Below are positions 2,671 through 46,671 of a stretch of 64,000 nt of DNA, piece after piece (the stretch's first letter is position 1; every line of letters starts with the position of its first letter). Location: contig CAVZVH010000026.1 of assembly GCA_963778645.1 (NCBI GenBank), positions 723,841-787,840 of the forward strand. The letters run 5' to 3'. Source of the stretch: an uncultured Chloroflexia bacterium (lineage in GTDB: Bacteria; Chloroflexota; Limnocylindria; Limnocylindrales; CSP1-4). A program made the position numbers and the translations under genes. The notes beneath the pieces were generated by a model, which saw nothing but the letters and a program-made list of their open reading frames with translations, was not told where the DNA came from and ran no database searches.

Positions 2671-2810
2671 GCGATCTGTCGCTCCGGAGGTGGTGGGGGA
2701 TGGTCCCTGCCGGCAGGATGGCAGGACCGACACGTTCCGGGTATGCCGCTGTTGGGGCATGGCCGAGGGTACTGGGGTCATGTGCAGGCTCGCACCATGA
2801 ACCCGAAACG

Positions 2811-11259: not shown

Positions 11260-11269
11260 ACTGTCGTCG

Positions 11270-12867: not shown

Positions 12868-13920
12868 ATGCCGATCAGTCTCCTGCGCATCGCCGGTCTG
12901 GTCCTCGCGGTCGTCCTCGTGCTCGTCGCGATCGGTCGACTTCGGCGACGCGGTGCCGGGAGCCGGGTGCCCGCCAGCGGGCTGCTCGTCGTCGGTCTTG
13001 GCCTGCTCGGCGTCGCCCTCTTCCCGGACCTGGTCCGGCCGATCCAGGACATCCTGGGCCTGGAGGGTGAGCCGCTCGGTCGGCTCGTCACCGTCCTCGT
13101 CATCTCCACGGCGATCGCCTACCTGCTCGTCTTCTATGCGCTGAGTCGGGCCGATCGCGCGAACCAACGCGTCAGCCGCCTGGTCCGGGCCCTGTCGGCC
13201 GCACAATTGGAAGCGGCCCGTGGCGAACGCTGGGGCGGGGTGCTCGTGTGCATCCCGGCCTTCGATGAGGCGGACAGCCTCCCCGGCGTCCTGGCCGAGG
13301 TTCCCCCGGAGGTGGCCGGCCTGGCGACCCATGTGCTGGTCATCGACGATGGCTCGCGGGATCGAACGGCCGAGGTCGCCCGTGCCAAGGGCGCGCACGT
13401 CGTGAGCCATCCAGTGAACAGCGGCCAGGGGGCGGCGCTCCAGACGGGCTATCTCGTGGCCGAACGACTCGGTGTCGATGTCGTGGTGACCCTCGACGCC
13501 GACGGCCAGCACGACCCGGGCCAGATGACGCGGCTCGTCGAGCCGATCGTGGCCGACGAGGCGGACTTCGTGGTCGGCTCGAGGCGCATGGCCGAAGGCG
13601 AGAGCGAGGGCGCCTCGAAGGCGCGCGATGCCGGCATCACCGTTTACACCCGGCTCATCAACCTGATCGGCGGCACCGAGGTGAGCGACATCGCCAACGG
13701 ATATCGGGCGATCCGCGCCTCCCGCCTGGCGGACATCGCGTTCACCGAGGACCAGTTCCACAATCCGGAGTTGCTGCTCGGCGCGGCCCGTGCCGGCCTG
13801 CGGGTCGTGGACGTGCCCGTCACGATCCGGCGCCGGACCGCCGGATCGTCGAAGAAGGGGACGGACCTGCGCTACGGCCTCGGCTTCCTGCGGGTGATGC
13901 TCAAGACCTGGCTGCGCTGA
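12868..13920 (+). CDS. DUF2304-like membrane domain fused to GT2 polyprenyl-phosphate sugar synthase-like glycosyltransferase
   Basis: ATG at 12868 within ORF 11812..13920, 350 aa. The N-terminal ~115 aa has hydrophobic helices. It is followed by VLVCIPAFDEADSLPGVL...VLVIDDGSRDRT...VVVTLDADGQHDP...DIANGYRAI, a DPM1/GtrB-like GT2 core. Confidence 0.8.
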   Translation: MPISLLRIAGLVLAVVLVLVAIGRLRRRGAGSRVPASGLLVVGLGLLGVALFPDLVRPIQDILGLEGEPLGRLVTVLVISTAIAYLLVFYALSRADRANQRVSRLVRALSAAQLEAARGERWGGVLVCIPAFDEADSLPGVLAEVPPEVAGLATHVLVIDDGSRDRTAEVARAKGAHVVSHPVNSGQGAALQTGYLVAERLGVDVVVTLDADGQHDPGQMTRLVEPIVADEADFVVGSRRMAEGESEGASKARDAGITVYTRLINLIGGTEVSDIANGYRAIRASRLADIAFTEDQFHNPELLLGAARAGLRVVDVPVTIRRRTAGSSKKGTDLRYGLGFLRVMLKTWLR

Positions 13921-14818: not shown

Positions 14819-14834
14819 CGTTGGCCCGACGCCT

Positions 14835-15875
<1,041 letters not shown>

Positions 15876-20781: not shown

Positions 20782-20924
20782 CGGTGGCAGGGTAGCAGGG
20801 CACCCTTGGTACATCCTTGGTAGGCCGTCGCTATCATGGCCCGGTGTCCGACCGACGGCCGAACTCCGGCGCCACTACGACCGGCGCAGGGTGGTCGACG
20901 ACCGTGATCGATCGAGCCGAGACG

Positions 20925-28910: not shown

Positions 28911-30083
28911 TCAGTTCTCGACGCGGAACTCCGCGCGGTGCCACACCTCGATCCCGCGACCCCGGATGACGTTGAGCCAGCCCAGCGCGAACGCCGCGTT
29001 CACGACGGCGAACGAGCGGGCGAAGGCGACGAGCCGAGGCGGCCGCCGGCCGGCCCCGATGATGAGGTGCGCGACGCCTGCCAGGAGCACGCCGAGGACT
29101 ACGGCGATCGGCACGGCGAGGTAGGCGGGCGAACCGCCAAGAGTGCCCAGCCATAGCCCCGTGATCGAGGCGAGGGCGATGAACCAGGGCGTCGCCCAGC
29201 GGAGCAGCTTGTGCGACCAGATCGCGAGGGCCGGACCCGGATGGCGCCAGGGCGCCAGCTTGCGAACCATCGAGAGGTTCGCCCGGATGCCCCGCGTGGC
29301 GGTGCGCGTGCGATTGCGGAACTGCTCGCGCAGGCCGCTGATCGGACGATCCGTCGCGATCGCCGCCGGGACGTACACGACGAGGCCGCCGGCCTCACGC
29401 ACGTAGAGCGGCAGCAGATGGTCCATCGAGGCGGTCAACGGCACCGGCCGGTAGACCACCCGACGGACCGCCAGGAGCGCGCCGGTCACGGCGGTCAGGA
29501 CGCCGGCCCGGCTCTCCATCTCGCGGACCCGACGCTCGTAGCGCCAGTAGAGGCCCTCCTGCGCCGATGTCGCCGTGGCGCCTTCATCGCGCCACTCCAG
29601 TCGACCCGTCGCACAGCCGACGCGTGGGTCGCGCAGCGCCTCCGCCAGCGCGGCCAGGCAACCTGGCGCGAACCGGGTCTCCGCATCGGTCAGCACCACG
29701 ACGTCGCCGCGGGCGGCCTCGAACAGGGCCGCCTGGGTCGCGGTCTGGCCGCCCCGCGGCAGCGCCAGCAGCCGCACCTGGGGGTCCTGGGCCGCCATCG
29801 CCGCCACGATCGCTTCGGTGGCATCGGTCGACCCGTCCGAGCCGACGAGGACCTCCGCGATCCGGGCGCCGCTGTGCGTCTGGGCGAAGGCGTCCTCGAT
29901 CCGATCGGAGATGTGGTCGGCCTCGTCGTGGACGGCGATCGCGATCGACAGCGTCGGCGGTTCGTTCGTGCGTTCTGGGACGACCGGCCTCTTCCGGGCG
30001 AGCAGCCAGACGGTGAGCGGGTAGCCGAGGTATACCCAGACGAGGGCGGCGATCGAGGCCCAGAACACGATCTCGGCGAGCAC
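28911..30083 (-). CDS. Membrane-anchored GT2 glycosyltransferase (synthase-like topology)
   Basis: 390 aa. It has an N-terminal TM, a GT-A core (LSIAIAVHDEADHI, VLVGSDGSTDAT, VVVLTDAETRF) and a QxxRW-like stretch EQFRNRTRTATRG. About 4 C-terminal TM helices follow. Confidence 0.75.
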   Translation of the reverse strand: MLAEIVFWASIAALVWVYLGYPLTVWLLARKRPVVPERTNEPPTLSIAIAVHDEADHISDRIEDAFAQTHSGARIAEVLVGSDGSTDATEAIVAAMAAQDPQVRLLALPRGGQTATQAALFEAARGDVVVLTDAETRFAPGCLAALAEALRDPRVGCATGRLEWRDEGATATSAQEGLYWRYERRVREMESRAGVLTAVTGALLAVRRVVYRPVPLTASMDHLLPLYVREAGGLVVYVPAAIATDRPISGLREQFRNRTRTATRGIRANLSMVRKLAPWRHPGPALAIWSHKLLRWATPWFIALASITGLWLGTLGGSPAYLAVPIAVVLGVLLAGVAHLIIGAGRRPPRLVAFARSFAVVNAAFALGWLNVIRGRGIEVWHRAEFRVEN

Positions 30084-30100
30084 GCGCAGAGCCTACGCGC

Positions 30101-31282
30101 TCAGCGCTCCCACGGCAGGTCGGGCCACCAGGTCCGCCAGCGTCCGACGAGCCGGCTGGCTTCGGCCGATCGGGTGTGGGCGGCGGCGAAGACATGGGCT
30201 CGCCGGCGCCGATCGTCGATCGCGGCCGCGTCCATCGACTGCAGGCGTTTCCACGCCGCGAGGACCGCCTCGGCCTCGGGTGCGCGGATCGGCTCCAGGA
30301 GGTCCGCCGCGACCAGCGCCGCGACGGCCCCGGCAGGCACGGCAAGCACGGGCAGGCCGACCGCGAACGCATCGAGCACGACCTTGGGGAAGCCTTCGGC
30401 CGGCGACGGGAAGACGAAGGCATCGGCGGCCGCCAGACGGTCGAGGTACGACACGCGATCGGCGACGTAACCGAGCCACCGGATCCGATCGCCAGCCCCC
30501 GACGACGTCGCGAGCTCGCTCAGGCGCTCCCGGTCCGGCCCGTCGCCCAGGATCTCGAGCTCGAGCGCCGGATCGGCGGCCACCGCGGCGATCATCGATT
30601 CGAGCCCCTTGCCGGCGGCCAGCCGTCCGGCCCAGGCGAGCCGGATCGGGCGTCCGTCGGATCCGGGTGCCCACGCTCGGGCGTTCGGATCACGCAGTTC
30701 CTGCGGCTCCACCAGGCTGGCCACGACTCCGTCGCCATGGACGACTCCGTCACCGACGACGACGCGATGCCCGCCGACGCCGGCCAGCCGACCGATCGCG
30801 TCGTAGCCGAGGCCGATCAGCCCGGCCCCGATGCGAGCGACCCCGCGGTACCTGGCGCCGGCCACGTCGGCCGCGCTGCCGGCGACCCACACGAAGCGAG
30901 GCGTGCCGGCTCGACGCGCGATGATCGCGGCCAGGGTCGCGTTCGACGCCGGGACCTTCAGCCAGAGGAGGTCGGCCTCGCCGATGGCGCGTCGCAGCGT
31001 GGACCGGTTGGCGCCGAGGAGGCCGGGCAGGTGACGGAGGTAGCCGGCGATCCCCTCGAATGGCGCCGTGCCGACCACCTGGATCCGGGGATCGACGGGC
31101 TGGGTGGCCGGCGGCGTCGCTGCGTCGCGCAGGGGCACGCACGAGATGATCGAGGCGACCGGCGATCCGGGCAGGTCCAGCAGACCCGCCACGAACCGCT
31201 GGAACGTGGCGTTGACCGGGTAGATCCGCCCCTCCCACGCCAGGTGCGGGTTGTCGTCGACCACGACCAGGGCGATGCCCAC
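30101..31282 (-). CDS. GT4-like glycosyltransferase
   Basis: C-terminal 393 codons of ORF 30101..32455, from GTG 31280-31282, 2 nt after the upstream stop. Motifs are VGIALVVVDDNPHLAWEGRIYP and PSPAEGFPKVVLDAFAVGLPVLAVPAGAV. Confidence 0.7.
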   Translation of the reverse strand: MGIALVVVDDNPHLAWEGRIYPVNATFQRFVAGLLDLPGSPVASIISCVPLRDAATPPATQPVDPRIQVVGTAPFEGIAGYLRHLPGLLGANRSTLRRAIGEADLLWLKVPASNATLAAIIARRAGTPRFVWVAGSAADVAGARYRGVARIGAGLIGLGYDAIGRLAGVGGHRVVVGDGVVHGDGVVASLVEPQELRDPNARAWAPGSDGRPIRLAWAGRLAAGKGLESMIAAVAADPALELEILGDGPDRERLSELATSSGAGDRIRWLGYVADRVSYLDRLAAADAFVFPSPAEGFPKVVLDAFAVGLPVLAVPAGAVAALVAADLLEPIRAPEAEAVLAAWKRLQSMDAAAIDDRRRRAHVFAAAHTRSAEASRLVGRWRTWWPDLPWER

Positions 31283-31284
31283 GC

Positions 31285-32769
31285 TCAGCGCTCCTCGCCC
31301 GGCTCGCGCTCGCCGATGACGAGATCGGCCGCGCCTTCCCCGCCGCGCAGCCCGACGATCGGCCCGTGACGTCGACCGGTAAGCCGGCCGACGATCGCCC
31401 GCAGCGCGGCCACCAGCGCCACGATGTCGGACCGACGGATCACCAGGGTCTCCCCCCAGCCCCGGCCGGACAGCCGGTGGAAGACGATGAGCGTGAGAGC
31501 CGCCGTGGCCAGGTAGGAGATCGACGAGGCAGCCGCCGCGCCGCTGATCCCGTAGGCCGGAATGAGCACGAGGTTGGCCGCGATGTTGATGACCAGCCCG
31601 GTCACCATGATCAGCGTGCTGGTCCCCGGGCGTCCGCCCCCGACGATGTAGCGCGACAGGACCGCCACGACGCTGTACGCGACGATGCCGGGCAGGATGA
31701 GCCGGAGCGCCACGCCCGCATCGGCGAAGGCCGAGCCATAGACGAACCGGACCAGCCGCGGGCCGATGATGAACGCCGGGACCGCTGTCACGAGCGCGAC
31801 GGCGATCGTGGTCCGGGTCAGGACCGACGCGATCCGGCCCGCATCCGCCTTGGGGTCGACGGCCCGGCTGAACATGACCGTCCCGAGGGCGTTCGGGACG
31901 TACCAGAGCGTTTCGGCGAGGCCGCTCGTGACCGAGTAGATGCCCGTCTGGCGGACGCCCAGGATGGCGTTGACGAGGAACGCATCCGAACGGAACTGGA
32001 GCCGCTCGGCGAGCGCGCCCGGCAGGGATCGCGCGCCGAACCGCAGCTCCTCGACCAGGAGCGGCATCGACGGTCTGAAGCCGAGACTCCCGTCGCGGGC
32101 GGCGACCCACAGGATGAGCGCGCCCGTCGCCCCCAGGGCGACGAGGTTGAGGAACAGGGCCAGGTCCAGGCTGAGCCGGGCGATCGCGGCGGCCGCGAGG
32201 ATGAAGAGCAGCAGGAGCCCCCGTCGCGCCACGCGGATGAGGCTGTAGTCGACCACGCGCTTCCGTCCAAGGAGGGCGTACAGGCCGATGCCGAAGAAGA
32301 GTTCGCCGGGCAGCGCCAGCGCGGCATACGTGAACTGCGCCGCGGAGAGGTTCGGGATGAGGATCGCCAGCGGTCCGTCGGGCCGCGTGTTCGTCGGCAG
32401 GCCGTACAACCAGCCCGACAGCACGACCGAGAAGCCGCCGACGACCGCGGTCCACAGGATGGCGTTGGCCATCCCGCGCCGCGCCGTCTTCTGGTCACGA
32501 CCGGCCACGACGGCCAGCGCCTGGTCCATCCCGACGCCGACGAGCAGGGCCGCCAGCTGCGAGTAGAGGAGGACGAGCGCAAACCGTCCCTTGGCCGATG
32601 GGCCGAGCAGGCGGGCCAGCGCGATGTCGGTCGCGAAGATGAGGACCGCCAGCCCGAAGCGGGTGACGATGGTGACCAGCGCGTCGCGCAGCAGCGGCGA
32701 CGGGCCGGCCACCGCCGGCGGCCCGGGCGCCGTCGGAGCGGCGACCGCGTCGGCCGCTGGCTCGCTCAT
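31285..32769 (-). CDS. Wzx-type oligosaccharide flippase (MOP superfamily), second copy
   Basis: ATG 32767-32769 within ORF 31285..33372, 494 aa, multi-TM. It has LLRDALVTIVTRFGLAVLIFATDIALARLLGPSAKGRFALV and LRFGARSLPGALAERLQFRSDAFLV. Confidence 0.75.
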   Translation of the reverse strand: MSEPAADAVAAPTAPGPPAVAGPSPLLRDALVTIVTRFGLAVLIFATDIALARLLGPSAKGRFALVLLYSQLAALLVGVGMDQALAVVAGRDQKTARRGMANAILWTAVVGGFSVVLSGWLYGLPTNTRPDGPLAILIPNLSAAQFTYAALALPGELFFGIGLYALLGRKRVVDYSLIRVARRGLLLLFILAAAAIARLSLDLALFLNLVALGATGALILWVAARDGSLGFRPSMPLLVEELRFGARSLPGALAERLQFRSDAFLVNAILGVRQTGIYSVTSGLAETLWYVPNALGTVMFSRAVDPKADAGRIASVLTRTTIAVALVTAVPAFIIGPRLVRFVYGSAFADAGVALRLILPGIVAYSVVAVLSRYIVGGGRPGTSTLIMVTGLVINIAANLVLIPAYGISGAAAASSISYLATAALTLIVFHRLSGRGWGETLVIRRSDIVALVAALRAIVGRLTGRRHGPIVGLRGGEGAADLVIGEREPGEER

Positions 32770-32782
32770 CGGCCGGCTGCGC

Positions 32783-33760
32783 TCACTCCGAACCGGACGC
32801 CGCGTGGGGAGTGACGCCGGCCAGGGCCGGCTCCGCGAGGGCCGTCCTGAACCAGGCCGCGGTCCTCGCCAGCCCATCGTCCAGGCCGACCGTGGCGCGA
32901 TAGCCGAGGACCCGCGCGGCCTTCTCGACCGCGGCCACGTTGCGGCGGACGTCACCGGCCCGGGCCGGCCCGTGGACGACCTCCAGCTCCCGTCCCACGG
33001 CACGCCCGACGCCCGAGGCCAGTTCCTCGATGGTCGTCTCGATCCCGGTCCCGGCCTGGAAGAGCTCGCCCGCGACGCGGTCCTCGGGGGCATCGAGCGC
33101 GGCCGCGATGGCCGACGCGAGGTCGTCGACGAAGACCAGGTCGCGCGTCTGCTGCCCGTCGCCGTGGATCGTGATCGGCTCGCCGGCGATCGCGGCTCGC
33201 AGCCAGGCCGCCACCACGCTGCGCTTGTGCAGCGAGTTCGGCCCGTAGGCGTTGGAGAAGCGCAGTGAGCAGGCGGCCAGGTCGTAGGTCGCGGCATACG
33301 CGCCGGCATACGCTTCGATGGCCAGCTTGGAGGCGCCGTACGGCGAGACCGGGTGGGGCAGGTCGGACTCATCGCTGGGTGGCTCGTGGTCGCCAGCCGC
33401 GGCGTTGGAGGATGCGAACACGAACCGGCGGACGCCGGCCTGCCGGGCGGCCTCCAGCAGCCCGACGGACCACGCCACGTTCGCCTCGAAGGTGCCGAGC
33501 GGGTCGCGCACGGAATCGTCGATGCCGGCCCGCGCCGCCAGGTGGACGACGGCGTCCACGCCGGTCACGGCCTGCCGGACGGTCGCCGGATCGGCGAGCG
33601 ACCCGCGCTGGAGTTCGTGCGGCGTGCCAGACAGGTACGCCGCGTGCCCGATCGAGAGGTCATCGAGGATCCGGACGCGGTCGCCCCGGGCGGCCAACCA
33701 CCGGGCGAGGTTGGAGCCGATGAAGCCGGCGCCCCCGGTCACGAGGACGGTTCGCGTCAT
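32783..33760 (-). CDS. NAD-dependent sugar-nucleotide epimerase/dehydratase (SDR)
   Basis: 325 aa. Motifs are VLVTGGAGFIGSNLARWL and SPYGASKLAIE (YxxxK). Substrate is not assignable from sequence alone. Confidence 0.8.
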   Translation of the reverse strand: MTRTVLVTGGAGFIGSNLARWLAARGDRVRILDDLSIGHAAYLSGTPHELQRGSLADPATVRQAVTGVDAVVHLAARAGIDDSVRDPLGTFEANVAWSVGLLEAARQAGVRRFVFASSNAAAGDHEPPSDESDLPHPVSPYGASKLAIEAYAGAYAATYDLAACSLRFSNAYGPNSLHKRSVVAAWLRAAIAGEPITIHGDGQQTRDLVFVDDLASAIAAALDAPEDRVAGELFQAGTGIETTIEELASGVGRAVGRELEVVHGPARAGDVRRNVAAVEKAARVLGYRATVGLDDGLARTAAWFRTALAEPALAGVTPHAASGSE

Positions 33761-33775
33761 GGGGCGTCGGCCGCG

Positions 33776-34960
33776 TCAGACGCGGACCGACTCGCGCGGC
33801 GGCTCGGGGACCCAGCGGACGTTCTGGACCAGTGTGGCCGGATCGATCAGCTGCTGGTGGGCCTTGATCTTGGCGAGCATCGTGTCGATCAGTTCCTCAC
33901 CGAGCAGGTGCGGCTCCAGCCCGAGCCCCAGGAGCTTGGTGTGCTTGGCGTTGTAGTAGTGCTCCTCGAGCTCCTTGCGCGGATTGGTCGTGTGCTCGAT
34001 GGCCACGTCCCAGCCAAGATGCTCGCCCGCGGCGCGGACCCGTTCGGCCAGCTCCAGGACGCTGAACTGCTCCGTGAACTGGTTGTAGACCCGCAGCTCA
34101 CCCCGGTCGGCCGGGTTCGCAGCGGCCAGGCCGATGCACGCCACGGTGTCGCGGATGTTCAGGTAGCCGCGCGTCTGGCCGCCTTTCCCGTACACGGTCA
34201 ACGGATGCCCGATGACCGCCTGGACGCAGAATCGGTTGAGCGCCGTCCCGAAGACCTCGTCGTAGTGGAAGCTGGTCGCCAGACGTGGGTCGAGTGCGGA
34301 TTCATCGGTCTCGACGCCGTACACGACGCCCTGGTTGAGATCGGTGGCGCGCAGGCCCCAGATCCGGCAGGCGAAGTGGATGTTATGGCTGTCGTGGACC
34401 TTCGAGAGGTGGTACATCGAGCCGGGCGTCTTGGGATAGAGGAAGGTGTGCTGGCGACCGTTGTGGTCGACGGTCAGGTAGCCCTCCTCGATGTCGATAT
34501 CGGGCGTGCCGTACTCGCCCATCGTGCCGAGCTTGACCAGGTGGATCTCCGGGTCGATGTCGCGGATGGCGAACAGGACGTTCAGGTTGCCGATGACGTT
34601 GTTGGCCTGGGTATAGGCAGCGTGACGGACGTCGATCATCGAGTACGGCGCGGACGGCTGCTCCCCGTAGTGGACGATCGTGTCCGGCCGGAAGCCGCTG
34701 ACCACCGACTCGACGAAGGCGTAGTCGGTCAGGTCGCCGACGAAGAGCTCGATGTCGTGCTCGGTGACCTCGCGCCACGCCCGGACGCGTTCGTGCAGCG
34801 TCGGGATCGGGAATAGGGGGCGGACGCCAAGCTCCAGTTCCCACTGGCGCTTCGCGAAGTTGTCGACGACGGCCACGCGCCCACCGGCGCGCGAGAACGC
34901 CATGGCAGTCGGCCAGCCCAGATAGCCGTCGCCGCCGAGGATCAGGATCCTGTCGGTCAC
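33776..34960 (-). CDS. sqdB: UDP-sulfoquinovose synthase
   Basis: 394 aa, nearly collinear with the SqdB/SQD1 signature as I recall it. Shared stretches are ILILGGDGYLGWPTA, KLGTMGEYGTPDIDIEEGYLTV.HNGR, YHLSKVHDSHNIHFACRIWGLRATDLNQGVVYG, FGTALNRFCVQAVIGHPLTVYGKGGQTRGYLNIRDTV, VYNQFTEQFSV and ELEEHYYNAKHTKLLGLGL. Confidence 0.9.
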   Translation of the reverse strand: MTDRILILGGDGYLGWPTAMAFSRAGGRVAVVDNFAKRQWELELGVRPLFPIPTLHERVRAWREVTEHDIELFVGDLTDYAFVESVVSGFRPDTIVHYGEQPSAPYSMIDVRHAAYTQANNVIGNLNVLFAIRDIDPEIHLVKLGTMGEYGTPDIDIEEGYLTVDHNGRQHTFLYPKTPGSMYHLSKVHDSHNIHFACRIWGLRATDLNQGVVYGVETDESALDPRLATSFHYDEVFGTALNRFCVQAVIGHPLTVYGKGGQTRGYLNIRDTVACIGLAAANPADRGELRVYNQFTEQFSVLELAERVRAAGEHLGWDVAIEHTTNPRKELEEHYYNAKHTKLLGLGLEPHLLGEELIDTMLAKIKAHQQLIDPATLVQNVRWVPEPPRESVRV

Positions 34961-34998
34961 GCTGTCATCTCCGGTTGGGGGGCACGGGGATGGCCATC

Positions 34999-35044
34999 TG
35001 AGGCCGCGGTCGAGTCTAGCATCGGGCTCGACGAGACGGCCTCA
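34999..35044 (-). other. Imperfect GC-rich hairpin at the boundary between the decayed cassette and the sqdB operon
   Basis: GAGGCCG..GTCGAG pairs with CTCGAC....CGGCCTC. There is no U-tract. It lies between the pseudogene stop (35110) and the sqdB start (34960). Confidence 0.3.
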
Positions 35045-35109
35045 GCCCTCCCAGGGGCTCGTCACGAGCCCGGCTACGCGATCCGCCGAGCGGCCATCCA
35101 ATGGGCCCA

Positions 35110-36561
35110 TCACACGCTCGATTGCTTCGCGTCGGGTCGAATAAATCGCTTCGCCGACTCCGGATCGGACAGTCTCGTCGCCTCCTCGGAAAGCGCAGCA
35201 CCATCACGAACCGACGTCAGGTCGAGTCCGGCCAGCTCTGCGCTCGCAATCGAGGGTTCACCAGTCTCGACCACGATCACCGGGCACTCGGCAGCCAAAG
35301 CCTCGCCAGCCACGGTCGAACGATGAACGACGACGACGTCCGCCCAGCCGAGAAGAGGCTCGACAGGCGATCGATCAATGACCTTCGTGCGTCGTCGGAT
35401 CTCGTGGTTCCACGCCGGTTCGCGGAGAACTTCGCTCCAGTCGCTTCCGCCCGGATGCAGCTTGATGACCAGCGCCGCGGAGGGCAGGTGCGTCAGCGCC
35501 TCCAGCATCGTCTCGACCAGTTTTCGATTGGAGTCCACTGACGCCACGCTGAGAGCGAGCAGGATTCGTGGAGCTCCGACAGTCGCGAGAGCCCGGTCCA
35601 CGCCGAGTTCGGTCGCCGAATCGGTCGCGAGCGCCAAGCCAGTCGAGACGCGGGTTGCCAACCACCCTGACACGGGCAGCCGGCGTTCCGCGTTCAACGA
35701 ACCAACGAGCCGACGCTTCACTCCACGCCGCCAATCGATCGGCGGCGAGCGGGAGGTAGCCGAGCGTCGCCTGAGGTAGACCATGCTGCAGGACGACTGA
35801 ACGGAATTCCGAGATCCGCCGCGACGTGGGTCGTCAGGCGACCGATCCGATGCTGGTCCGTTGCAACGACCACAGTCAATGGCCTCGAACGCTCGAGGAA
35901 CGTTCTGATCGCGGTGGCCTCGATGACGATCCATGGGAGAGATCGTCGAACCACCGGTCGGGCAGCCTGCATGGCCGTCAAAGCCACGTCGACGCCGCCG
36001 ATCAGGAGTGGAGGGGGAGATCGGCTGGCCGCCTGCCAGCAATCCTCGACAGATCCGTGCAGGGAGCGGAGCCGGCGGAATTCGGCAACAGGCGACAGGA
36101 CGAGCGGGCTGGCGTGGTGGCCGGACGACCGCCAGCGGCGAAGTGCGCGCGGGTCGGCAACGCCGACGGACGGGGGATCGGGTACCTGATTCGCGACGGC
36201 GACCAAGCCATCGAGCGTTGACGGCGTCGCCAGCTCAGAGATAATTGCCACGTTGGAGCGAGCGGGACCGGTAGTGAACGACGTGGGCGCGACGGCTCGC
36301 AGTCCCCACGCTCGGATCGCACGATCCAGCCCGCGCTGTCTTCAAGCCCCGATAGATCGGCCGTCCGATGACGCGGGCCGGCTGTCCAATCAGAGGGAGC
36401 ACGGCGGCAAGGACCGCATCCGCGACCTCGATGTGGATTGCCCAACCGGATGGAAGGCCGTCCAACGAGAGGAGGTCCTCGCCAGACGGACCCAGGAACC
36501 ACGATTTGGCCCAGCGCTCGACCGACACCAATGCGTCTGCGTGGGTTCCGCGCCCCGTCAT
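35110..36561 (-). pseudogene. GT-B-fold capsule/teichoic-type transferase-like gene (CDP-glycerol glycerophosphotransferase / capsule-synthesis-like), at least 3 frameshifts
   Basis: Pieces occupy all three minus frames. They are MTGRGTHADALVSVERWAKSWFLGPSG...IGRPIYRGLK, GLDRAIRAWGLRAVAPTSF...VAIISELATPSTLDG...ADLGIPF, VVLQHGLPQATLGYLPLAADRLAAWSEASARWFVERGTPAARVRVVGNPRLD and ALATDS...LVIKLHPGG...ADVVVVHRSTVAGEALAAECPVIVV. Shifts lie near 36330, 35780 and 35645. Confidence 0.6.
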
Positions 36562-37923
36562 AGGGCGGGCTCGGAGGGGGTTGCCACGTCAGCCGCCGGC
36601 GTCAGCGACCCGGCTCTGGTCGAAGGTAGGCCCGGGAGGCGCCGCGCCGCGATCCTGGCCCGCCATCGAAGGCCGAGGCTGTACAGGACCATCGCCAACG
36701 CTGAGGCCGCGGACACGCCCAGCAACCCATAGCCGAGCTGGAGGAGGATGATGGCCATGGCGAGGTCGGCGGCGATGGCGGCCACCTGGATGGCCAGATA
36801 CTCGCGCTGGGCCCCGACGCTCGTCAAGACGCTAGCGAAACCCGATGCCCATGCGTAGACCAGCGCGCCAAGCATCGAGATCAGGAGTGGCCCGCGGGCA
36901 TCGTCGAAAGCCGGCAGGAACACAGGGATGGCGAGCCACGCAGCGAGTCCAAGGGTAGCGATCAGCGTGCCGGCGAACGCGACAGCGAGCCGGGATTGCC
37001 GTTGAGCGAGCGCGAGCAACTCGGCGCCGGAACTCCCTGCCCCGAACGCAAAGGCGAGGTGTGGGTACGCCTGCTGAGCGAGGATCGTCACGACTACCAA
37101 CAACGCGCTGACCGCGAGACCGACGAGGCCGTAGATCCCGACGGCCTCCGTCCCGAGGAACGTCAGCACGAGCCATCGGTCCAGCGTGGTCAGGGCCATA
37201 AAGGCAAGACCCGCCAGCATCAGCGGCAGACCAACCGAGATGAGTCGCCGTGCCGTCGGAGGATCCCAGCGCAGGCGAGGAGGTCGCTCGAGCAGGAGCA
37301 CCGTAATCACCAAGCTGGTCAGCTGGGCGAGGACCTGGGCCGCGATCAGGCCCGACAGACCGAACCGTAGCGAGCGACAGTCCTCCCACAAGGGTGACAC
37401 CTCCCACCGCCGCGAGCTGGATCGCCGCGGCTCGGAACGCGAAACGCGACCGAAGGAGGATCTGAGCCAGCAGGAATAGCTGCTGGCTGAACGCGGCGGC
37501 GGCGACTAGAACGACGAGCAGGGCGTCGCCGCCCACGCTTGGCTCGCCGATCGTCCTGACGATGACGCCCACCGCTATGGCTCCGATGAGGCTGGTCCCG
37601 ATGGTGGCCACGAGGGACACGTCCTCCGCCAGCTCAGCGTCCGCTTGACGACCTGCCCCAAGCCGCAGCGGTACCTCACGGCCGAGCCCGTTCGGGATTC
37701 CTAGCGAAAGGAAGGAGACGTACTGGAGAACCAGCACGATGAGTACCCACTCCCCGAACGCCGAGGGCCCCAGGTAGGCCGCAGCCACGACGCTGAGAGC
37801 CAGCCGACAGCCCTGGAAGACCAGTGTCCCGAGCGCGAATCTGCCGATGTCCCCCGTGACCGGCAGGAGGTATCTGCGAAATCGCGAAGATGAAGCTGCG
37901 AGAGCCGCCCGGAACGATCCCAT
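36558..37923 (-). pseudogene. Wzx-type flippase (third copy) with a frameshift near 37365-37375
   Basis: The N-terminal half is in ORF 36832..37923 (through ...QLAAVGGVTLVGGLSLATV). The C-terminal half is in ORF 36558..37400 (FGLSGLIAAQVLAQLTS...). Its stop overlaps the downstream ATG as ATGA at 36558-36561. Confidence 0.7.
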
Positions 37924-37994
37924 GCGATCTGTCTAGGCCTGACGAGTCCACGGGGCCGGCGCCGGCGCTGTCATTCCGCTGCTGGTGCGCGTTC

Positions 37995-39490
37995 TCACCC
38001 ACGACCCGACGTTGGGATCGGGGCGATCGATGGGTCCGGTGCGGCAGATGTCGTCGTCGTTGGCCTAGCACCAACGGGCTCGGTCTCACCAGGCAAGGGG
38101 ATGGAGATCCGCTCGGAGACCGCGACGGCGAGCCCCACGGCACTCGCGATCAGAAGCCACTCGAGCGAGCCGTTTCGCGGGTTGAACAGGTGGGAGTTCG
38201 TCAGTGCGGCGACCGGGAACAGGACGGACGCGATCGCGATCCCCATGCCGGCCCAGCCGACAGCGGCTCGCGCCGCGCGTGCGCGGAATACCCACGCGAT
38301 AGTGCCCAGACTGGCGGCAAGCAACAGGAGGTATAGCGTCAGCGTAGGCAGTCCGAACTCCGCCCCGACCTGCAGGTAAGCCAAATGCGTGTCGGCCACG
38401 ACCAAGGGACCGGTCGGGTCCAGGACATAGCGCTGGATGTTCATCTGGAATGGCCCGACTCCGAAGAGAGGATCAGACTCGACCATCGTCAAGGCCGCGG
38501 TCCAGAACGCGCTTCGTGACGAAATTTCCGCCGCCGCGGCGGAGTCGTCGATGTTGCCCACCGCTTCGCCGGTGGAGCCTGGGTCGATGACGCTCAGGGT
38601 ACGCCCGCCGGCATCAGCGACGCTTGATGCAGCCAAGGTGGCGACCACGATGAGGCCGGCGATGACGATCGAGCGGACCTGCGCCACCCCGATCCGTACG
38701 GGGTAGGCGACGACCGCCAGCACAGCGGCTCCAAGCAGAAGCAGGAGGGCCATCCGTGTTCCGGTCTGCATCATCGCGAAGATGCATGCGATCGCGATCA
38801 GGCCGCACAACGAGGCGCGCAGCCAGCGTGCGCGTCGTTCGTCCAGATCGGATGCATACCGAAAGGCCATCCCCGCTGCTGCGACCGCTACGACGGTCAG
38901 AGCGACCGCGAGACCATTGCGCCCGAACGTCTTGGCCGTGAACCGATCCGGACTGTCGCTGATGGTCGTATAGACGCCATTGCCGAGCAGAAACAGGCCT
39001 CCGGCCGCGATGGCCAGTCCGAGGCGGCTGCCGTCGCCCAACTCATCGCGGAGTGCACCCGCGAGAAGGAGATAGGCCGGGATCCTCACCGAACAGGATC
39101 ACGCCCCGCACGACCGCGCCGGGCTCGACCCCGCTGACCAACGCTGCCAGCGTGGACAGTGTCGCGACGCCGGCGAGGACGATCCCGAGCGGCATCAGGC
39201 GCCGGGTCCAGCCCGGCAGGTCCGTCGCTCGCGGATCGTCAGCACCAGGGCCCAGGCCAGGAGCAGGTCGTTGAAGGTCAAGACCGGAGCCATCGCATTG
39301 GCCAACGGGTGGAGATTCAACGTCATCTGCGGGAACACGTCGTCCACGTTGCCCGGGATGGCCAGGAGTCCGAATGCCAGAGCGGGGATGCGCCACGTCG
39401 GGCGCGTTTCGAGGATGGCGAGGCCGACCACCATAGCCAGGCCAGCGACGAAGATGGCGGTGGTCAAGCTGTCTCCGACTCCGCGAACTG
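37995..39490 (-). pseudogene. O-antigen ligase/polymerase (Wzy_C-like) with at least 2 frameshifts; 5' end uncertain
   Basis: The main part is ORF 37995..39089 (FAMMQTGTRMALLLLLG, DTHLAYLQVGAEFGLPTL). N-terminal pieces sit in two other frames: SLTTAIFVAGLAMVVGLAILE...LLLAWALVLTIRE, and PLGIVLAGVATLSTLAALVSG. Confidence 0.6.
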
Positions 39491-39578
39491 AGGACGTCGC
39501 GAATTCTAGTCGATGCTCTTTGCCGATGACGACGGTCGGCCCTCCCCGTGAAGGGAGTCGCGGGACATACTTGCGGAC

Positions 39579-40514
39579 ATGTCGCCTTCGATCGGGAGCT
39601 GCCCCGCTTGCGGTTCTGATTGGCTCCCAAGCCCCACCAGCATCAGGGTCGAAGGCTTCGTCATCGAGCGTTGCTCGTCCTGCGGACTTGGGAGGCTCCG
39701 GGAGCCGCCTGCTGACGAGGAGCTGGCCAGGCTCTACGCAGCCGACCTCTATGCCCCTGGCACCCCGAGGGCGTGGCCGCTGATCCGGTCGCTCCATCGC
39801 CGACTCAATCGCCGACTGCTCAGTCGGCTGGGGGAGCCGAGCGGACGCTTGCTCGACGTCGGCGCTGGTAAGGGACACTTCCTCGCCGCAGCCAGGGCCG
39901 CCGGCTGGGATGCCGATGGTCTCGAGTACTCGGCCACATCGGCAACGGCCGCCAGGAACCTCTACGGCGTCGAGGTGCGGGTCGCGGACTTCATGGCCCT
40001 GCCGCCCTGGCCGGCCCACTACGATGTGCTGTCGATGATCCACGTGCTGGAGCACCTGCCGGACCCCGGCCGCGCGCTAGATGTGGCGCGCACGCTGCTG
40101 ACGCCTGGAGGACGGATCCTCATCTCGGTCCCGAACGCGGCGAGTCTCCAGGCACGGTCGTTTGGGCGGCATTGGCTGCATCTCGACCTGCCCCGGCACC
40201 TGTTCCACTTCACGCCGCAGTCCCTCGCGATCCTCTTGCGACGGGCAGGCTTCTCCATGCTGCAGTCCGATACCTCATCGCCAGACATGGATGTGACCGG
40301 CTTCGTGCAGTCGACGCTGAATGTCGCAGGCTTCGAACGCAACGTCGCCCTTCGCTTCGTCAAGCGAGATGCGGCCGCAGGAAGCATCCGGGGCACCCTC
40401 GGGCCTCTCGCGATCGCAGCCGCCGCCATCCCGGCCGCGGTCGGATGGTCGATCATCGCCCCCCGGCTCGGCGGTGGAGCGAGCATTCAAGTCGTCGCTC
40501 GCCTCGATCACTGA
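39579..40514 (+). CDS. Class I SAM-dependent methyltransferase with N-terminal Cys4 zinc ribbon (intact)
   Basis: Unbroken 311-aa ORF. Motifs are CPACGSDW...CSSCGLG, LLDVGAGKGHFLAAARAAGW, YDVLSMIHVLEHLPDP, LTPGGRILISVPN and WLHLDLPRHLFHFT. Confidence 0.8.
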   Translation: MSPSIGSCPACGSDWLPSPTSIRVEGFVIERCSSCGLGRLREPPADEELARLYAADLYAPGTPRAWPLIRSLHRRLNRRLLSRLGEPSGRLLDVGAGKGHFLAAARAAGWDADGLEYSATSATAARNLYGVEVRVADFMALPPWPAHYDVLSMIHVLEHLPDPGRALDVARTLLTPGGRILISVPNAASLQARSFGRHWLHLDLPRHLFHFTPQSLAILLRRAGFSMLQSDTSSPDMDVTGFVQSTLNVAGFERNVALRFVKRDAAAGSIRGTLGPLAIAAAAIPAAVGWSIIAPRLGGGASIQVVARLDH

Positions 40515-41710
40515 GACGTCGGCCGGCGGCCGGACCTCGGACGGACCATGCGGACGAACAGCGCCTCGTACTGGTCGGTGACGTGATCCCACGCAAAATG
40601 CAGCGCGAGCCCGATCGGCGGCCGCGGACCCGAGACGCTGACGTTCGGCCGCGTTACCAACCAGCTGACGAAGCTCCCCGGCAAGGGATCCAGGATCGTT
40701 GCGGTCGTAATACCGGCCCGTGTCACCGAGGACCTCGCGGTGTTCGGGCACGTCGTTGGCGACGATCGCCGCTCCGCGGCCCATCGCCTCGACCAGGGCC
40801 GGATGCGTGCCGCCGACCTCGGTCGCCTGGACGTAGGCCATGGCGTTCGACTGAAGCTCCGCATAACCCTCGCCGAAGACATATCCAGTGAGCGTGACGC
40901 CCGGAGTCTCTGCGGCGATCGCCTCGAGTGAGGCCTTATAGGCGGTCGCATATGGCGCGTCGCCGACGATGACCAGCGGCACGCCTAGCCGACAGCCCGC
41001 CGCCTGCGCGGTAGCCGTCGATGACCGTATGGGCGTGGTTCTCCGGTTCCAGTCGACTCACGTACAGGATGTAGCGACCCGCCTCGAGGCCCAGCCGGGC
41101 CAGCGTCTCGCCCGCGGGCAGGCGTCGTGCGTCCGATGCCGTACGGGATGTACACGGTCGCCTTGCCGTACCGCTCCTCGTACCAACGCGCGATGACCTG
41201 CGGCGTCAGATACCAGGACGATGGGCAGTTTCGGCGCCAGCCACGCGCAACGCCTTGTAGTACCAGCGACCAAGTCGGTTCCATTTGCCGCGCTCCCATT
41301 CGAGGCCGTCGACGTTGAGGACGACCCTTGCGCCCCCAAGGCGAGGCACCATGGCGAAGGGCGCGTTCGCGTTGTTGCAGATCAGGACGATGTCGAATCT
41401 TCGGAGCAGGCCGTCGACGACGACTCAGTGCTGTATGGGCGATCGTATCGAGATACTTGTGGCGGACTGACGGGCAGCACTCGAAGCCGCATCCCGCGGT
41501 GCTCACGGACGCCAGCCGGGACATGTGCGACCGACCGTAGACGGTGACGACATTCCGCGCGCTCGACGAGGCGGACGCCCAGCTGCTCCGCAAAGGTCTC
41601 GAAGCCGCCGTATGCCGCCGGCACGCCGCGCGTGCCCATGATCGCGATCCGGAGTGTGCGGGCGCCCGGATCGCCGAGCGTGAGCGTCCTGGTTGCGCAC
41701 GGCCCTTTCG

Positions 41711-41714
<4 letters not shown>
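40508..41714 (-). pseudogene. DUF1972-type GT4 glycosyltransferase, at least 5 frameshifts
   Basis: Pieces in three frames: LRIAIMGTRGVPAAYGGFETFAEQLGVRLVER, VTVYGRSH...RHKYLDTIAHTALS, DIVLICNNANAPFAMVPRLGGARVVLNVDGLEWERGKWNRLGRWYYKAL, PQVIARWYEERYGKATVYIPYG, YILYVSRLEPENHAHTVIDGY, VPLVIVGDAPYATAYK...GGTHPALVEAMGRGAAIVANDVPEH and HFAWDHVTDQYEALF. Confidence 0.7.
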
Positions 41715-44285
<2,571 letters not shown>

Positions 44286-46577: not shown

Positions 46578-46671
46578 GTAGTACGGAAGTACTACGTCAC
46601 CGAGGGCCAGTCGTACCAGCCACGGGACTGGACGGAACGTCTCCGGACCCGCATCCTTTACTTCCGACGTG
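46578..46671 (+). promoter_or_regulatory. Candidate structured leader upstream of the second GGDEF gene
   Basis: An unusually AT-rich palindrome GTAGTAC-ggaa-GTACTAC lies at 46578-46595. Its CGGAAGTA (46584-46591) is also complementary to TACTTCCG (46659-46666), 2 nt before the GTG at 46669. Confidence 0.25.

Follow-up and report, generated by a model that had tools for sequence, protein, structure and literature searches.

Gene organization of the sqdB cassette

The window (the whole 64-kb stretch of DNA analyzed) contained a ~40-kb glycan island surrounding a five-gene cassette, and this cassette displayed the minus-strand gene organization sqdB–GalE-like epimerase gene–MOP flippase gene–GT4 gene–membrane GT2 gene. 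All five genes were intact open reading frames with high GC3, and they were separated, from sqdB to the GT2 gene, by gaps of 15, 13, 2, and 17 nt, bearing out the gene positions and the gaps of 2–18 nt given in an earlier sequence-only reading; with gaps of 2–17 nt, the cassette showed no internal promoter or terminator signal of note.

sqdB (33776..34960, minus strand; 394 aa) started with GTG and had GGAG 8 nt upstream. Its product matched the SQD1 structures 1QRR/1I24 gaplessly over residues 3–383 (E 1e-155) and shared 59% identity with Arabidopsis SQD1 across 380 aa with zero gaps, in line with the near collinearity with SqdB/SQD1 noticed earlier. T145, M146, E148, Y149, S180, Y182, H183, K186, H96, Q209, R263, and R327 were all retained in the alignment; this set included all the catalytic residues (the Thr/Tyr/Lys marked for checking in the earlier reading, T145, Y182, and K186, plus H183) together with the other positions shown to be important in Agl3. 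The match to NCBIfam NF041015 reached 462 bits (E 1e-138), below the equivalog cut-off of 575 bits, and this model appears, as we infer, to be built from archaeal Agl3-type sequences. SQD1 Arg101 was replaced by Pro, at a position that was variable among bacterial homologues generally. SqdB of the window is thereby assigned to the plant/cyanobacterial SQD1 type, as a genuine UDP-sulfoquinovose synthase.

The epimerase gene (32783..33760, minus strand) encoded a 325-aa GalE-like NDP-hexose C4-epimerase, which matched PF01370 (210 bits) and carried the motifs GGAGFIGS at residue 9, SS at 117–118, and YGASK at 141–145. Its top 14 structure matches were mostly labelled C4 epimerases (TmGalE 4ZRM, 2P5U, WbgU, and WbpP), plus MoeE5, and some bore generic labels only. 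This gene was located directly 3′ of sqdB in 37/38 Chloroflexota loci and also adjoined sqdB in loci L053 and L042. The enzyme is a candidate UDP-sulfoquinovose 4-epimerase or, alternatively, a UDP-Glc/UDP-Gal supplier; no feature tying it to a sulfonated substrate was found in its sequence.

The MOP-superfamily (Wzx/MurJ-like) flippase gene (31285..32769, minus strand) started with ATG at 32769 (494 aa) or, alternatively, GTG at 32712 (475 aa). The flippase had ~12 hydrophobic segments, matched Polysacc_synt_3 (E 2e-10) and MurJ (E 1e-7), scored far under the MurJ equivalog cut-off (26 versus 235 bits), and was kept in 34 loci at 62–91% identity. Characterized Wzx/MurJ-type MOP proteins transport polyprenyl-linked substrates.

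Glycosyltransferases and search for an SQDG synthase

The GT4 gene (30101..31282, minus strand) encoded a 393-aa retaining GT-B enzyme with a divergent N-terminal domain, Pfam coverage (Glycos_transf_1) being confined to residues 208–327 in the C-terminal half. It was conserved full-length among relatives at 37–82% identity. Its similarity to database proteins bearing the name SQD2 (P0133; 49 bits, 30% across 122 aa) was of the generic C-terminal GT4 kind, and another GT4 of the window outscored it against SQD2 (80 versus 49 bits); the cassette GT4 was thus rejected as an SqdX/SQD2 orthologue, and grouping with SqdX, which would have counted against the earlier reading, was not seen. Scans of the 64-kb window, and of the sqdB neighborhood (within 10 kb) in 80 related genomes, gave no SQD2-like gene above 82 bits, in agreement with the earlier statement that no SQDG synthase accompanied sqdB.

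The last gene (28911..30083, minus strand) encoded a 390-aa membrane-embedded inverting GT2 (PF00535 [Glycos_transf_2]/PF13641), which was composed of one N-terminal membrane helix, a GT-A domain, and several C-terminal helices. Within its TDAE motif, D133 and E135 were invariant and T132 nearly so; D221 in SMDHLL was also invariant. The AF2 model was of moderate confidence (pLDDT 78.6, pTM 0.77), with pLDDT below 50 around residues 162–175 and 219–225, near the catalytic Asp. The best Foldseek match of this model was PcManGT 6YV7 (E 6e-14, TM 0.66/0.73), with hyaluronan and cellulose synthases ranking next. PcManGT is a membrane GT2 that is reported to function in archaeal N-glycan assembly; it is dolichyl-phosphate dependent. 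Sulfoquinovose in the Sulfolobus N-glycan is β-linked (PMC8993221), which fits an inverting GT2. GT2 homologues of 33–35% identity adjoined sqdB and a flippase gene in Acidobacteriota L062 and L064; GT2, not GT4, was the transferase that remained linked to sqdB across phyla, and it is the best candidate for the sulfosugar transferase.

Upstream region and 7.8-kb insertion

Nucleotide homology of the sqdB upstream region with the counterparts in L001, L022, L033, and L002 ended at window positions 35025–35026, and the conserved 66-nt region 34961..35026 was the leftover of a divergent promoter region. It was followed by a 7.8-kb strain-specific insertion (35027..42803), whose flanks were only ~20 nt apart in L001 and L022. 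The insertion was lower in GC content (0.66–0.68 versus 0.72–0.73) and carried variable glycan genes (GT1-like, Wzy_C, methyltransferase, and gene fragments), for which no homologues were found in the compared relatives. In the window, this insertion separated sqdB from its ancestral divergent neighbor, a gene (42801..44285, plus strand) for a CstB-like persulfide dioxygenase-rhodanese protein. The latter comprised an MBL-fold persulfide dioxygenase domain (Lactamase_B) and two Rhodanese domains, and its PDB matches were 3TP9 (320 bits), 3R2U (186 bits), BpPRF (91 bits), and ETHE1 (45 bits). In 15 Chloroflexota loci, sqdB and the CstB-like gene were immediate divergent neighbors; the latter is a conserved partner of the cassette and its product a plausible candidate for the sulfite source. 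The earlier proposal that sqdB heads an operon held for the relatives, in which a divergent gene preceded sqdB, but not for the window, in which same-strand genes lay 85–150 nt upstream because of the 7.8-kb insertion.

Conservation and neighboring genes in relatives

The relatives compared were all uncultured MAGs. The five genes occurred in the same order in 26/29 Limnocylindria-type Chloroflexota loci (loci with ≥8 kb of sequence downstream), so the arrangement was not a matter of chance; the lowest identities across relatives were 51% (epimerase), 62% (flippase), 37% (GT4), and 51% (GT2), and the cassette flanks differed from genome to genome. The five genes are judged to be inherited as a single block.

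Various glycan genes were associated with the cassettes of relatives: (i) a gene for a Bac_transf priming phosphoglycosyltransferase immediately following sqdB in L035 and immediately preceding it in L028; (ii) a Wzy_C gene within the cassette in L035, with genes of a family clustering with this Wzy_C gene just 3′ of the GT2 gene in four more loci; (iii) an MBOAT gene in L009; and (iv) a gene for a CWB2 wall-binding protein within the cassette in L015/L016. In L009, L012, and L026, genes for polytopic membrane proteins without family match came after the GT2 gene. The scanned ORFs of the window did not include a priming phosphoglycosyltransferase, nor did the conserved five-gene core. Wzy-like genes belonged to the variable flanks, outside the conserved cassette. 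L031 retained both sqdB and the dioxygenase gene but lacked the cassette.

Outside Chloroflexota, three Acidobacteriota loci displayed the gene organizations sqdB–epimerase–MurJ–...–GT4 (L053), sqdB–Wzx–GT2–GT2 (L062), and sqdB–MOP–GT2–methyltransferase (L064), and a Pseudonocardia plasmid had a GT2 gene divergently adjoining sqdB, with a MurJ-annotated gene ~4.4 kb away.

Proposed product and alternative explanations

The co-occurrence of a synthase, a flippase, and transferases with no sulfolipid synthase suggested that the sulfosugar would probably reside in an exported cell-surface glycan. The best reading of the cassette product, as far as sequence can tell, is a flipped polyprenyl-linked glycan with sulfoquinovose or its C4 epimer sulfofucose. 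The sequence-only reading had likewise placed sulfoquinovose or an epimer in a flipped lipid-linked oligosaccharide, and it gained support from SqdB itself, the lack of an SqdX near sqdB, the conservation of the block, the surrounding glycan genes, and the Acidobacteriota loci. We put the probability that the module adds a sulfonated 6-deoxyhexose to an exported polyprenyl-linked envelope glycan in Limnocylindria-type soil Chloroflexota at roughly 55%.

The proposed pathway would run as follows: (i) SqdB, identified from its sequence, would convert UDP-glucose plus sulfite to UDP-sulfoquinovose; (ii) the sulfite might be supplied by the CstB-like protein; (iii) the GalE-like epimerase would turn some UDP-sulfoquinovose into UDP-sulfofucose or supply a partner UDP-hexose; (iv) at the cytoplasmic face, the inverting GT2 and the retaining GT4, roles suggested by fold (a PcManGT-like "half-tunnel" for GT2) and gene context, would build a short unit containing the sulfosugar on a polyprenyl phosphate-linked acceptor; (v) the MOP flippase would translocate this unit, with its lipid carrier, to the outer face; and (vi) lineage-variable enzymes encoded in the flanks (Wzy_C proteins, methyltransferases, the L009 MBOAT, and the polytopic membrane proteins without family match) would polymerize, ligate, or decorate it. 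The expected product would be an anionic glycan of the cell surface or wall that bears sulfonate groups, rather than the membrane lipid SQDG. We know of no C-sulfonate donor sugar in bacterial polymers; if true, this would be a sulfosugar in an exported surface glycan previously undescribed in bacteria.

An unlikely alternative is a polyprenyl-monophosphate donor route like GacI/J/K/L of group A Streptococcus: sulfoquinovose would be transferred from UDP-sulfoquinovose to undecaprenyl phosphate, the MOP flippase would flip Und-P-sulfosugar, and, on the outside of the membrane, a GT-C membrane enzyme would decorate a wall polysaccharide or protein with side chains of one sulfosugar each. GacI/GacJ function has been described, and the Wzx-type flippase GacK has been proposed to flip GlcNAc-P-Und (bioRxiv 10.1101/180810). 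The window encoded a DUF2304-GT2 fusion (12868..13920, plus strand; PF10066 plus PF00535) of the GacJ-GacI/PpgS polyprenyl-phosphate sugar synthase type, through which the sulfosugar might alternatively enter, as well as an LPG_synthase_TM protein and, at 2811-4646, a PMT_2 GT-C protein; homologues of the fusion were found in the vicinity of the cassette in 12 Chloroflexota loci, and 12 loci from other phyla had one close to sqdB. The gene order in L052 was sqdB, DUF2304-GT2, and then a 13-TM protein gene, L048 and L066 had DUF2304-GT2 after sqdB and a homologue of the L052 membrane protein upstream, and the polytopic proteins 3′ of the cassette in L009, L012, and L026 also suit this route. 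However, the fusion of the window was 15 kb distant from the cassette, the closest relatives (L001, L002, and L022) had no such gene within 10 kb, and the route gives no role to the conserved GT4 and PcManGT-like GT2.

Also improbable is a sulfoglycolipid, with GT2 and/or GT4 acting as a non-orthologous lipid glycosyltransferase that would glycosylate diacylglycerol or some other membrane lipid with sulfoquinovose plus a second sugar, followed by transport to the outer leaflet. Chloroflexota membranes are glycolipid-rich, many lipid glycosyltransferases are membrane GT2/GT21 or GT4 enzymes, weak matches to the Glyco_transf_21, HpnI, CruG, MGlcDAG synthase, and GlcN-PG synthase models were found, and the five-gene core had no priming enzyme. 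Against this stood the polyprenyl-linked substrates of characterized MOP flippases, the priming transferase, Wzy, MBOAT, and CWB2 genes that joined the cassettes of relatives, the α linkage of SQDG, which an inverting GT2 would not produce, and the missing SQD2-like features of GT4.

More doubtful still is an incidental co-location, in which SqdB would feed SQDG through SqdX/SqdD encoded elsewhere and the other four genes would make an ordinary non-sulfonated glycan. The genome was examined over 64 kb only, sqdB and sqdX are unlinked in some cyanobacteria (PMC13436972), and L031 lacked the cassette, but the gene order was held across deep divergence within variable flanks, the Acidobacteriota linkages sqdB–flippase–GT2 and sqdB–epimerase–MurJ were independent in origin, and the narrow gaps showed no signals of note. 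That the SqdB homologue runs another reaction (e.g., a plain dehydratase/epimerase step) and no sulfosugar is made is highly improbable: the missed NF041015 cut-off and the Arg101 replacement are offset by the gapless SQD1 identity, the intact catalytic and Agl3-essential positions, the variability of residue 101, the apparent archaeal origin of that model, and the predicted sulfite-generating enzyme encoded beside sqdB in relatives.

Comparison with known systems

The proposed exported sulfosugar glycan resembled the Sulfolobus acidocaldarius Agl3 pathway in that a UDP-sulfoquinovose synthase supplies a lipid-linked flipped glycan, not SQDG. That pathway differs in being archaeal and dolichol-based, with the oligosaccharyltransferase AglB and genes scattered genome-wide, whereas the window harbored a compact bacterial cassette including an epimerase and a MOP flippase; Agl3 is only ~40% identical to SQD1 (PMC4388408), compared to 59% for SqdB of the window. 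The SqdB-SqdX (SQD1-SQD2) SQDG pathway of plants and cyanobacteria shares the type of first enzyme and the same-strand transferase genes downstream, but in place of an SqdX/SQD2 orthologue the cassette had a membrane GT2 along with a flippase and an epimerase, and its host belongs to a soil lineage of non-phototrophic type. Thermoplasma acidophilum N-glycan carries 6-C-sulfofucose, the C4 epimer of sulfoquinovose, for whose biosynthesis there is no known pathway (PMC12421959); sqdB with a C4-epimerase gene immediately behind it would be the simplest conceivable UDP-sulfofucose route.

Wzx/Wzy assembly of O-antigen, capsule, and EPS likewise combines nucleotide-sugar genes, glycosyltransferases, and a MOP flippase, with Wzy_C in the flanks here, and the likeness extended to the Bac_transf enzymes adjoining sqdB in L035 and L028; the core of the window differed in having no priming enzyme, polymerase, or chain-length regulator of its own, and in its proposed C-sulfonate donor sugar. 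GacI/GacJ/GacK/GacL, which make the side chains of streptococcal rhamnopolysaccharide, share the DUF2304-GT2 synthase, the Wzx-type flippase, and GT-C-like membrane proteins with the parts found around sqdB in several phyla; they differed from the window in that its DUF2304-GT2 lay apart from the cassette and the cassette transferases were of other types.

Gene content of the sqdB cassette and its proposed product

The window (GC about 70%) was annotated by GC3-based gene calling together with ORF listing. Five minus-strand genes were recognized as intact ORFs: sqdB at 34960-33776 (start GTG, with GGAG 8 nt upstream), an SDR gene encoding an epimerase at 33760-32783, a gene for a polytopic membrane protein (flippase) at 32769-31285 (ATG start at 32769, with GTG at 32712 as an alternative), a GT4 gene at 31282-30101, and a GT2 gene at 30083-28911. 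The intergenic gaps from sqdB to the GT2 gene were 15, 13, 2, and 17 nt, and the labels of the five products agreed with Pfam and NCBIfam; the close-packed, single-strand gene order described by the sequence-only reading was thus confirmed. The Rfam scan of the whole window gave zero matches, indicating no riboswitch or RNA marker there, and the promoter/terminator scan of 28.5-36.5 kb gave none above shuffle expectation.

The cassette was interpreted, on the basis of sequence, synteny, and one predicted fold and with a probability of roughly 0.55, as a determinant of a polyprenyl-linked, flipped, and finished sulfosugar glycan made in five steps: (i) the predicted SqdB activity would convert UDP-Glc plus sulfite to UDP-sulfoquinovose; (ii) the epimerase may go on to UDP-sulfofucose; (iii) the membrane GT2, the GT4, or both would transfer the sugar onto a polyprenyl-linked acceptor; (iv) the MOP protein would flip the glycan product; and (v) lineage-variable polymerase, ligase, and decorating enzymes would finish it.

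Conservation of the cassette among Chloroflexota relatives

With one genome scanned per species, 80 sqdB loci were obtained, 39 of which came from Chloroflexota MAGs (all uncultured, and labelled Limnocylindria/Limnocylindrales or 'uncultured Chloroflexia') with SqdB identities of 68-97%; the other loci belonged to Acidobacteriota, Actinomycetota (mostly Solirubrobacterales), Alphaproteobacteria, and others, with SqdB identities of 61-68%. The order epimerase-flippase-GT4-GT2 was kept in 26 of the 29 Chloroflexota loci having at least 8 kb downstream, and at least three of these four genes were present in 28 of the 29. The epimerase gene adjoined sqdB in 37 of 38 Chloroflexota loci, and also in L053 and L042. 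Identities to the window products across the Chloroflexota relatives were 51-90% (epimerase), 62-91% (flippase; the L035 flippase was 50% identical by direct BLASTP), 37-82% (GT4), and 51-88% (GT2). The window genes flanking the cassette were common to the closest relatives only, or to none; with variable flanks around five genes that were kept, these five were regarded as an inherited unit.

Relatives displayed additions to the cassette: (i) a Bac_transf priming phosphoglycosyltransferase gene and a Wzy_C gene between sqdB and the epimerase gene in L035, which continued with flippase, GT4, and GT2, and a priming enzyme gene directly upstream of sqdB in L028; (ii) an MBOAT O-acyltransferase gene plus its partner between epimerase and flippase in L009; (iii) a gene for a CWB2 cell-wall-binding protein between flippase and GT4 in L015 and L016; (iv) a gene family clustering with the L035 Wzy_C gene, found 3' of GT2 in four further loci; and (v) genes for polytopic proteins of 10 and 13 predicted helices without Pfam match, coming after GT2 in other loci and including homologues of a 10-helix protein of the window (4634-5902, minus strand) directly after the cassette GT2 in L009, L012, and L026. 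Judged from their families, the genes added by relatives are those that accompany an exported glycan rather than a membrane lipid. A sulfoglycolipid as the cassette product, in which the sulfosugar would likewise end in something other than classical SQDG, was accordingly ranked as unlikely.

A PF03601 gene (YeiH-type, 'putative sulfate exporter') was present in ten loci (L019-L021, L023, L025, L026, L030, L032, L038, and L051); it lay immediately upstream of sqdB in L026 and L030, and separated GT4 from GT2 in the other eight. This transporter was a further sulfur-related link to the cassette. Two Chloroflexota loci did not contain the cassette: L037 had, within its positions 2416-5069, sqdB followed by a DegT-type aminotransferase gene, and L031 retained only sqdB and the dioxygenase-rhodanese gene.

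Recurrence in other phyla and the DUF2304-GT2 fusion

Related gene combinations were found outside Chloroflexota: (i) sqdB, epimerase (45% identical), and MurJ (160 bits), with GT4 farther on, in L053 from Acidobacteriota; (ii) sqdB, Wzx, GT2, and a second GT2 that was 33% identical to the window GT2 over full length in L062; (iii) sqdB, a SpoVB-like MOP protein, GT2 (35% identical), and a methyltransferase in L064; and (iv) sqdB beside GT2, GNAT, and MurJ on a Pseudonocardia plasmid.

A DUF2304-GT2 fusion was encoded close to sqdB in 24 of the 80 loci (12 from Chloroflexota plus 12 others). Such a fusion is a polyprenyl-phosphate sugar synthase of GacJ-GacI/PpgS type (bioRxiv 10.1101/180810). 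L052 displayed the order sqdB, DUF2304-GT2, and a 13-helix membrane protein, while L048 and L066 had DUF2304-GT2 after sqdB and a homologue of the L052 13-helix protein upstream. This linkage hints at an Und-P-sulfoquinovose route. The corresponding alternative, a GacIJKL-like route using an Und-P-sulfosugar and a GT-C enzyme, would also place the sulfosugar in a product other than classical SQDG. The part types of the GacI/GacJ system were all present in the window, namely the DUF2304-GT2 fusion at 12868-13920 (plus strand), the cassette flippase at 31285-32769, and a PMT_2 GT-C glycosyltransferase at 2811-4646 (minus strand), but they were dispersed, and this route was held to be no likelier than the sulfoglycolipid.

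Cassette GT4 and the search for SqdX

An SqdX (SQDG synthase) reference was sought on plasmids, where the sqdB homologues were of alphaproteobacterial or archaeal types (35-47% identity) plus the one from Pseudonocardia; no SqdX reference was obtained from these records, the neighbour of Pseudonocardia sqdB being GT2, not SqdX. An Arabidopsis SQD2 sequence served as the probe instead, once the database had borne it out: a protein of A. lyrata/arenosa was 99% identical, and many entries carrying the name sulfoquinovosyl transferase SQD2 were 83-90% identical.

The cassette GT4 matched P0133, a database protein named SQD2, with 49 bits and 30% identity over 122 C-terminal residues, and its N-terminal domain had no Pfam match; another window GT4 (25472-26605) scored above it, with 80 bits over 326 residues, and the top SQD2-like score across the 64-kb window and 81 loci was 82 bits. 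The PDB sequence search with the cassette GT4 gave weak generic GT4 matches and none else. The assignment of the cassette GT4 as SqdX/SQD2 was rejected, since the similarity was not full-length and did not cover both GT-B domains; by these scores, neither window GT4 is an SqdX/SQD2 orthologue. The sequence-only reading, which had set the product apart from SQDG and hinged on the cassette GT4 being no SqdX, was not contradicted at the sequence level. In the 80 genomes sampled, the stretch up to 10 kb from sqdB contained no SqdX/SQD2 orthologue. SQDG could still be made via an unlinked SqdX, with sqdB and its neighbours co-located incidentally; set against the gene order kept among relatives, this was considered quite unlikely.

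UDP-sulfoquinovose synthase SqdB

The window SqdB matched the Arabidopsis SQD1 structures with E 1e-155 and 523 bits, and its alignment to 1QRR was gapless over residues 4-383, with 225 of 380 residues identical (59%). The NAD site GxxGxxG read GGDGYLGW (residues 9-16), as in an extended SDR. In SQD1 numbering (window numbering minus one), the catalytic residues T145, Y182, and K186 plus H183 were all there, and SqdB also kept M146, E148, Y149, S180, H96, Q209, R263, and R327; these 12 residues were invariant or nearly so among 80 homologues. Among them are the SQD1 triad and those positions (His95/96, Met, Glu-Tyr, and Ser180) at which mutation inactivates Agl3, a list taken from PMC4388408. 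The collinearity with SQD1 supposed at first reading thus held over the full length of the protein, and the catalytic residues singled out for checking were present.

Identities to other SqdB types from plasmid records were 42% (Sinorhizobium) and 36-41% (haloarchaeal), and by this comparison the window SqdB is much nearer to SQD1 than to them. SqdB scored 462 bits (E 1e-138) against the NCBIfam equivalog NF041015, below its 575-bit cut-off; this was attributed to a model probably centred on archaeal Agl3-type sequences. Arg101 of SQD1 was replaced by Pro in the window SqdB; the substitution was rejected as a mark of changed function and given no weight, because position 101 varies among bacterial homologues of all phyla. 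With the active-site residues kept and these two departures accounted for, a SqdB homologue of different chemistry would be highly improbable.

Epimerase, flippase, and membrane GT2

The epimerase displayed the motifs GGAGFIGS at 9-16 (GxxGxxG), SS at 117-118 within SSNAAAG (not the dehydratase TDE), and YGASK at 141-145; it was without the Asp/Glu pair of 4,6-dehydratases and fitted a GalE-like NDP-hexose C4-epimerase. For its substrate, UDP-sulfoquinovose, UDP-Glc, and UDP-GlcNAc are candidates, and the gene's linkage to sqdB is the one pointer among them. Among the best 14 matches to solved structures, most were labelled C4 epimerases (Thermotoga and Thermus GalE, WbgU, and WbpP), together with MoeE5, while the top two, 6WJ9 and 6WJB (presumably PelX), had a generic label only. 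The flippase had Polysacc_synt_3 and MurJ matches and about 12 hydrophobic segments, being of MOP (PST/MVF) type; it was rejected as a housekeeping MurJ, with 26 bits against the MurJ equivalog versus a cut-off of 235.

The PDB sequence search with the cassette GT2 gave no match, so a fold search was used. The GT2, to which the database protein P0241 was 100% identical, was modelled with AlphaFold2 from 45 homologues (pLDDT 78.6, pTM 0.77). The model contained N-terminal and C-terminal membrane helices (2-31, 251-273, 282-314, 319-343, and 350-373), and D133/E135 of TDAE and D221 were invariant. The best Foldseek match was PcManGT from Pyrobaculum (6YV7; E 6e-14; TM 0.66/0.73), with hyaluronan and cellulose synthases ranking below it. 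PcManGT, described by Gandini et al. in 2020, is reportedly dolichyl-phosphate dependent, with its gene lying within a putative N-glycosylation cluster. Its three membrane helices run antiparallel (PMC10569066), and this membrane GT2 uses an Asp as general base (PMC12595478). As modelled, the cassette GT2 fits this minimal cellulose-synthase-like fold in its GT-A domain, DxD-type motif, catalytic Asp, and helices. The QxxRW stretch read EQFRNRTRTATRG, without the Trp found in processive GT2 enzymes (BcsA/HAS/PgaC/NodC). A processive synthase was considered unlikely, given this degenerate motif and the minimal PcManGT as the best fold match, and the sequence suggests a non-processive GT2.

SQDG has an alpha linkage, and the GT2 as an inverting enzyme would form a beta linkage. 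Sulfoquinovose in the Sulfolobus N-glycan is beta-linked (PMC8993221), i.e., in the linkage expected of an inverting GT2.

CstB-like neighbour, 7.8-kb insertion, and GAF-GGDEF genes

The plus-strand gene at 42801-44285 encoded an MBL-fold domain plus two rhodanese domains, and its product matched 3TP9 (320 bits), 3R2U (186 bits; which we take to be Staphylococcus aureus CstB), the Burkholderia persulfide dioxygenase-rhodanese fusion BpPRF (91 bits), and ETHE1 (45 bits). Fifteen Chloroflexota loci, those of the nearest relatives L001 and L022 among them, had its homologue directly divergent from sqdB at a distance of about 100 nt. Since the sulfite released by persulfide dioxygenases is what SqdB takes as co-substrate, this linkage suggests that the CstB/PRF-like persulfide dioxygenase is a dedicated sulfite source for UDP-sulfoquinovose synthesis.

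By nucleotide alignment, L001 and L022 had no more than about 20 nt between the counterparts of window positions 35026 and 42804; the intervening 35027-42803 was thus recognized as a 7.8-kb insertion into the spacer from which sqdB and the MBL-rhodanese gene diverge. The insertion had a lower GC (0.66-0.68), and its genes had no homologues in relatives: a GT1-like gene (35110-36042), a gene for a 5-TM protein (36832-37923), a Wzy_C gene (37995-39089), a plus-strand methyltransferase gene (39579-40514), a GT1 C-terminal fragment (40275-40982), and an SDR fragment (42020-42733). Its content suggests a serotype-type module that was acquired not long ago and whose genes are in decay.

Beyond the CstB-like gene, there were two plus-strand GAF-GGDEF diguanylate cyclase genes (44576-46558 and 46669-47925), whose homologues were close to the cassette in 19 loci. 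The glycan may be under c-di-GMP control, as this linkage would allow; no PilZ or other receptor was identified.

Significance of a bacterial sulfosugar glycan

Sulfoquinovose is regarded as a phototroph product, made as the lipid SQDG via SqdB-SqdX, and its sole well-known use in a glycan is, to our knowledge, archaeal. A 2026 review of bacterial sulfoquinovose cycling treated biosynthesis only as SQDG via SqdB-SqdX (PMC13436972); for sulfofucose, a dedicated soil catabolic pathway is known, and its biosynthesis was stated as not known in a 2025 paper (PMC12421959). The literature searched contained no account of sulfofucose biosynthesis or of this cassette, and it placed neither sulfoquinovose nor sulfofucose in a bacterial glycan; searches for sulfoquinovose in Limnocylindria or bacterial polysaccharides were likewise negative. 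The enzymes are of known families, and the archaeal precedent of Agl3 is already known.

If the cassette makes a sulfosugar glycan, bacterial surface polymers would gain a new anionic class, and one might speculate on a phosphate-free stand-in for teichoic-acid-like polymers in phosphorus-poor soils. The first candidate sulfofucose pathway would be at hand, and heterotrophic soil lineages would become sulfosugar producers. A tentative and rather doubtful extension is that Limnocylindria and, by similar linkages, some Acidobacteriota/Actinomycetota make an anionic C-sulfonated envelope glycan, with sqdB-epimerase as the first UDP-sulfofucose route and sulfite coming from a dedicated persulfide dioxygenase. 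In that case, the soil sulfur cycle would receive sulfoquinovose and sulfofucose from non-phototrophic bacteria that are abundant in soil but have gone unrecognised as a source.

Glycan island around the cassette

Judged by its gene content, the window from about 2.8 to 42.7 kb is a single large envelope-glycan island, with many GT4 and GT2 genes and five methyltransferase genes. At one end, the PMT_2 GT-C gene and the 10-helix protein gene were accompanied by a minus-strand gene for an LPG_synthase_TM protein within 2811-6930. Genes for a GDP-mannose 4,6-dehydratase (429 bits) and then a second GDP_Man_Dehyd-family SDR, which may be a GDP-fucose synthase, occupied 13901-15833 on the minus strand; the island probably also makes a GDP-6-deoxyhexose. 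Three Wzy_C proteins (37995-39089, 20904-22424, and 11207-12808) were encoded in the variable flanks, not in the conserved core.

A second glycan operon (20904-28892, plus strand), convergent with the cassette, was composed of genes for Wzy_C, a GT, a methyltransferase, two GT4 enzymes, a second Wzx-like MOP flippase, and a methyltransferase; it was common to L001 only, and partly to L034. Compared to the Wzx/Wzy pathway, the cassette contained the MOP flippase, but no priming phosphoglycosyltransferase (PF02397 or PF00953) was present among the window ORFs scanned.

Farther along the window, the coding sequence of a DUF885 protein at 54731-56417 (plus strand) was divided between two overlapping ORFs, one matching profile positions 1-291 and the other 302-531; the cause is either an assembly error or a frameshift in a pseudogene.
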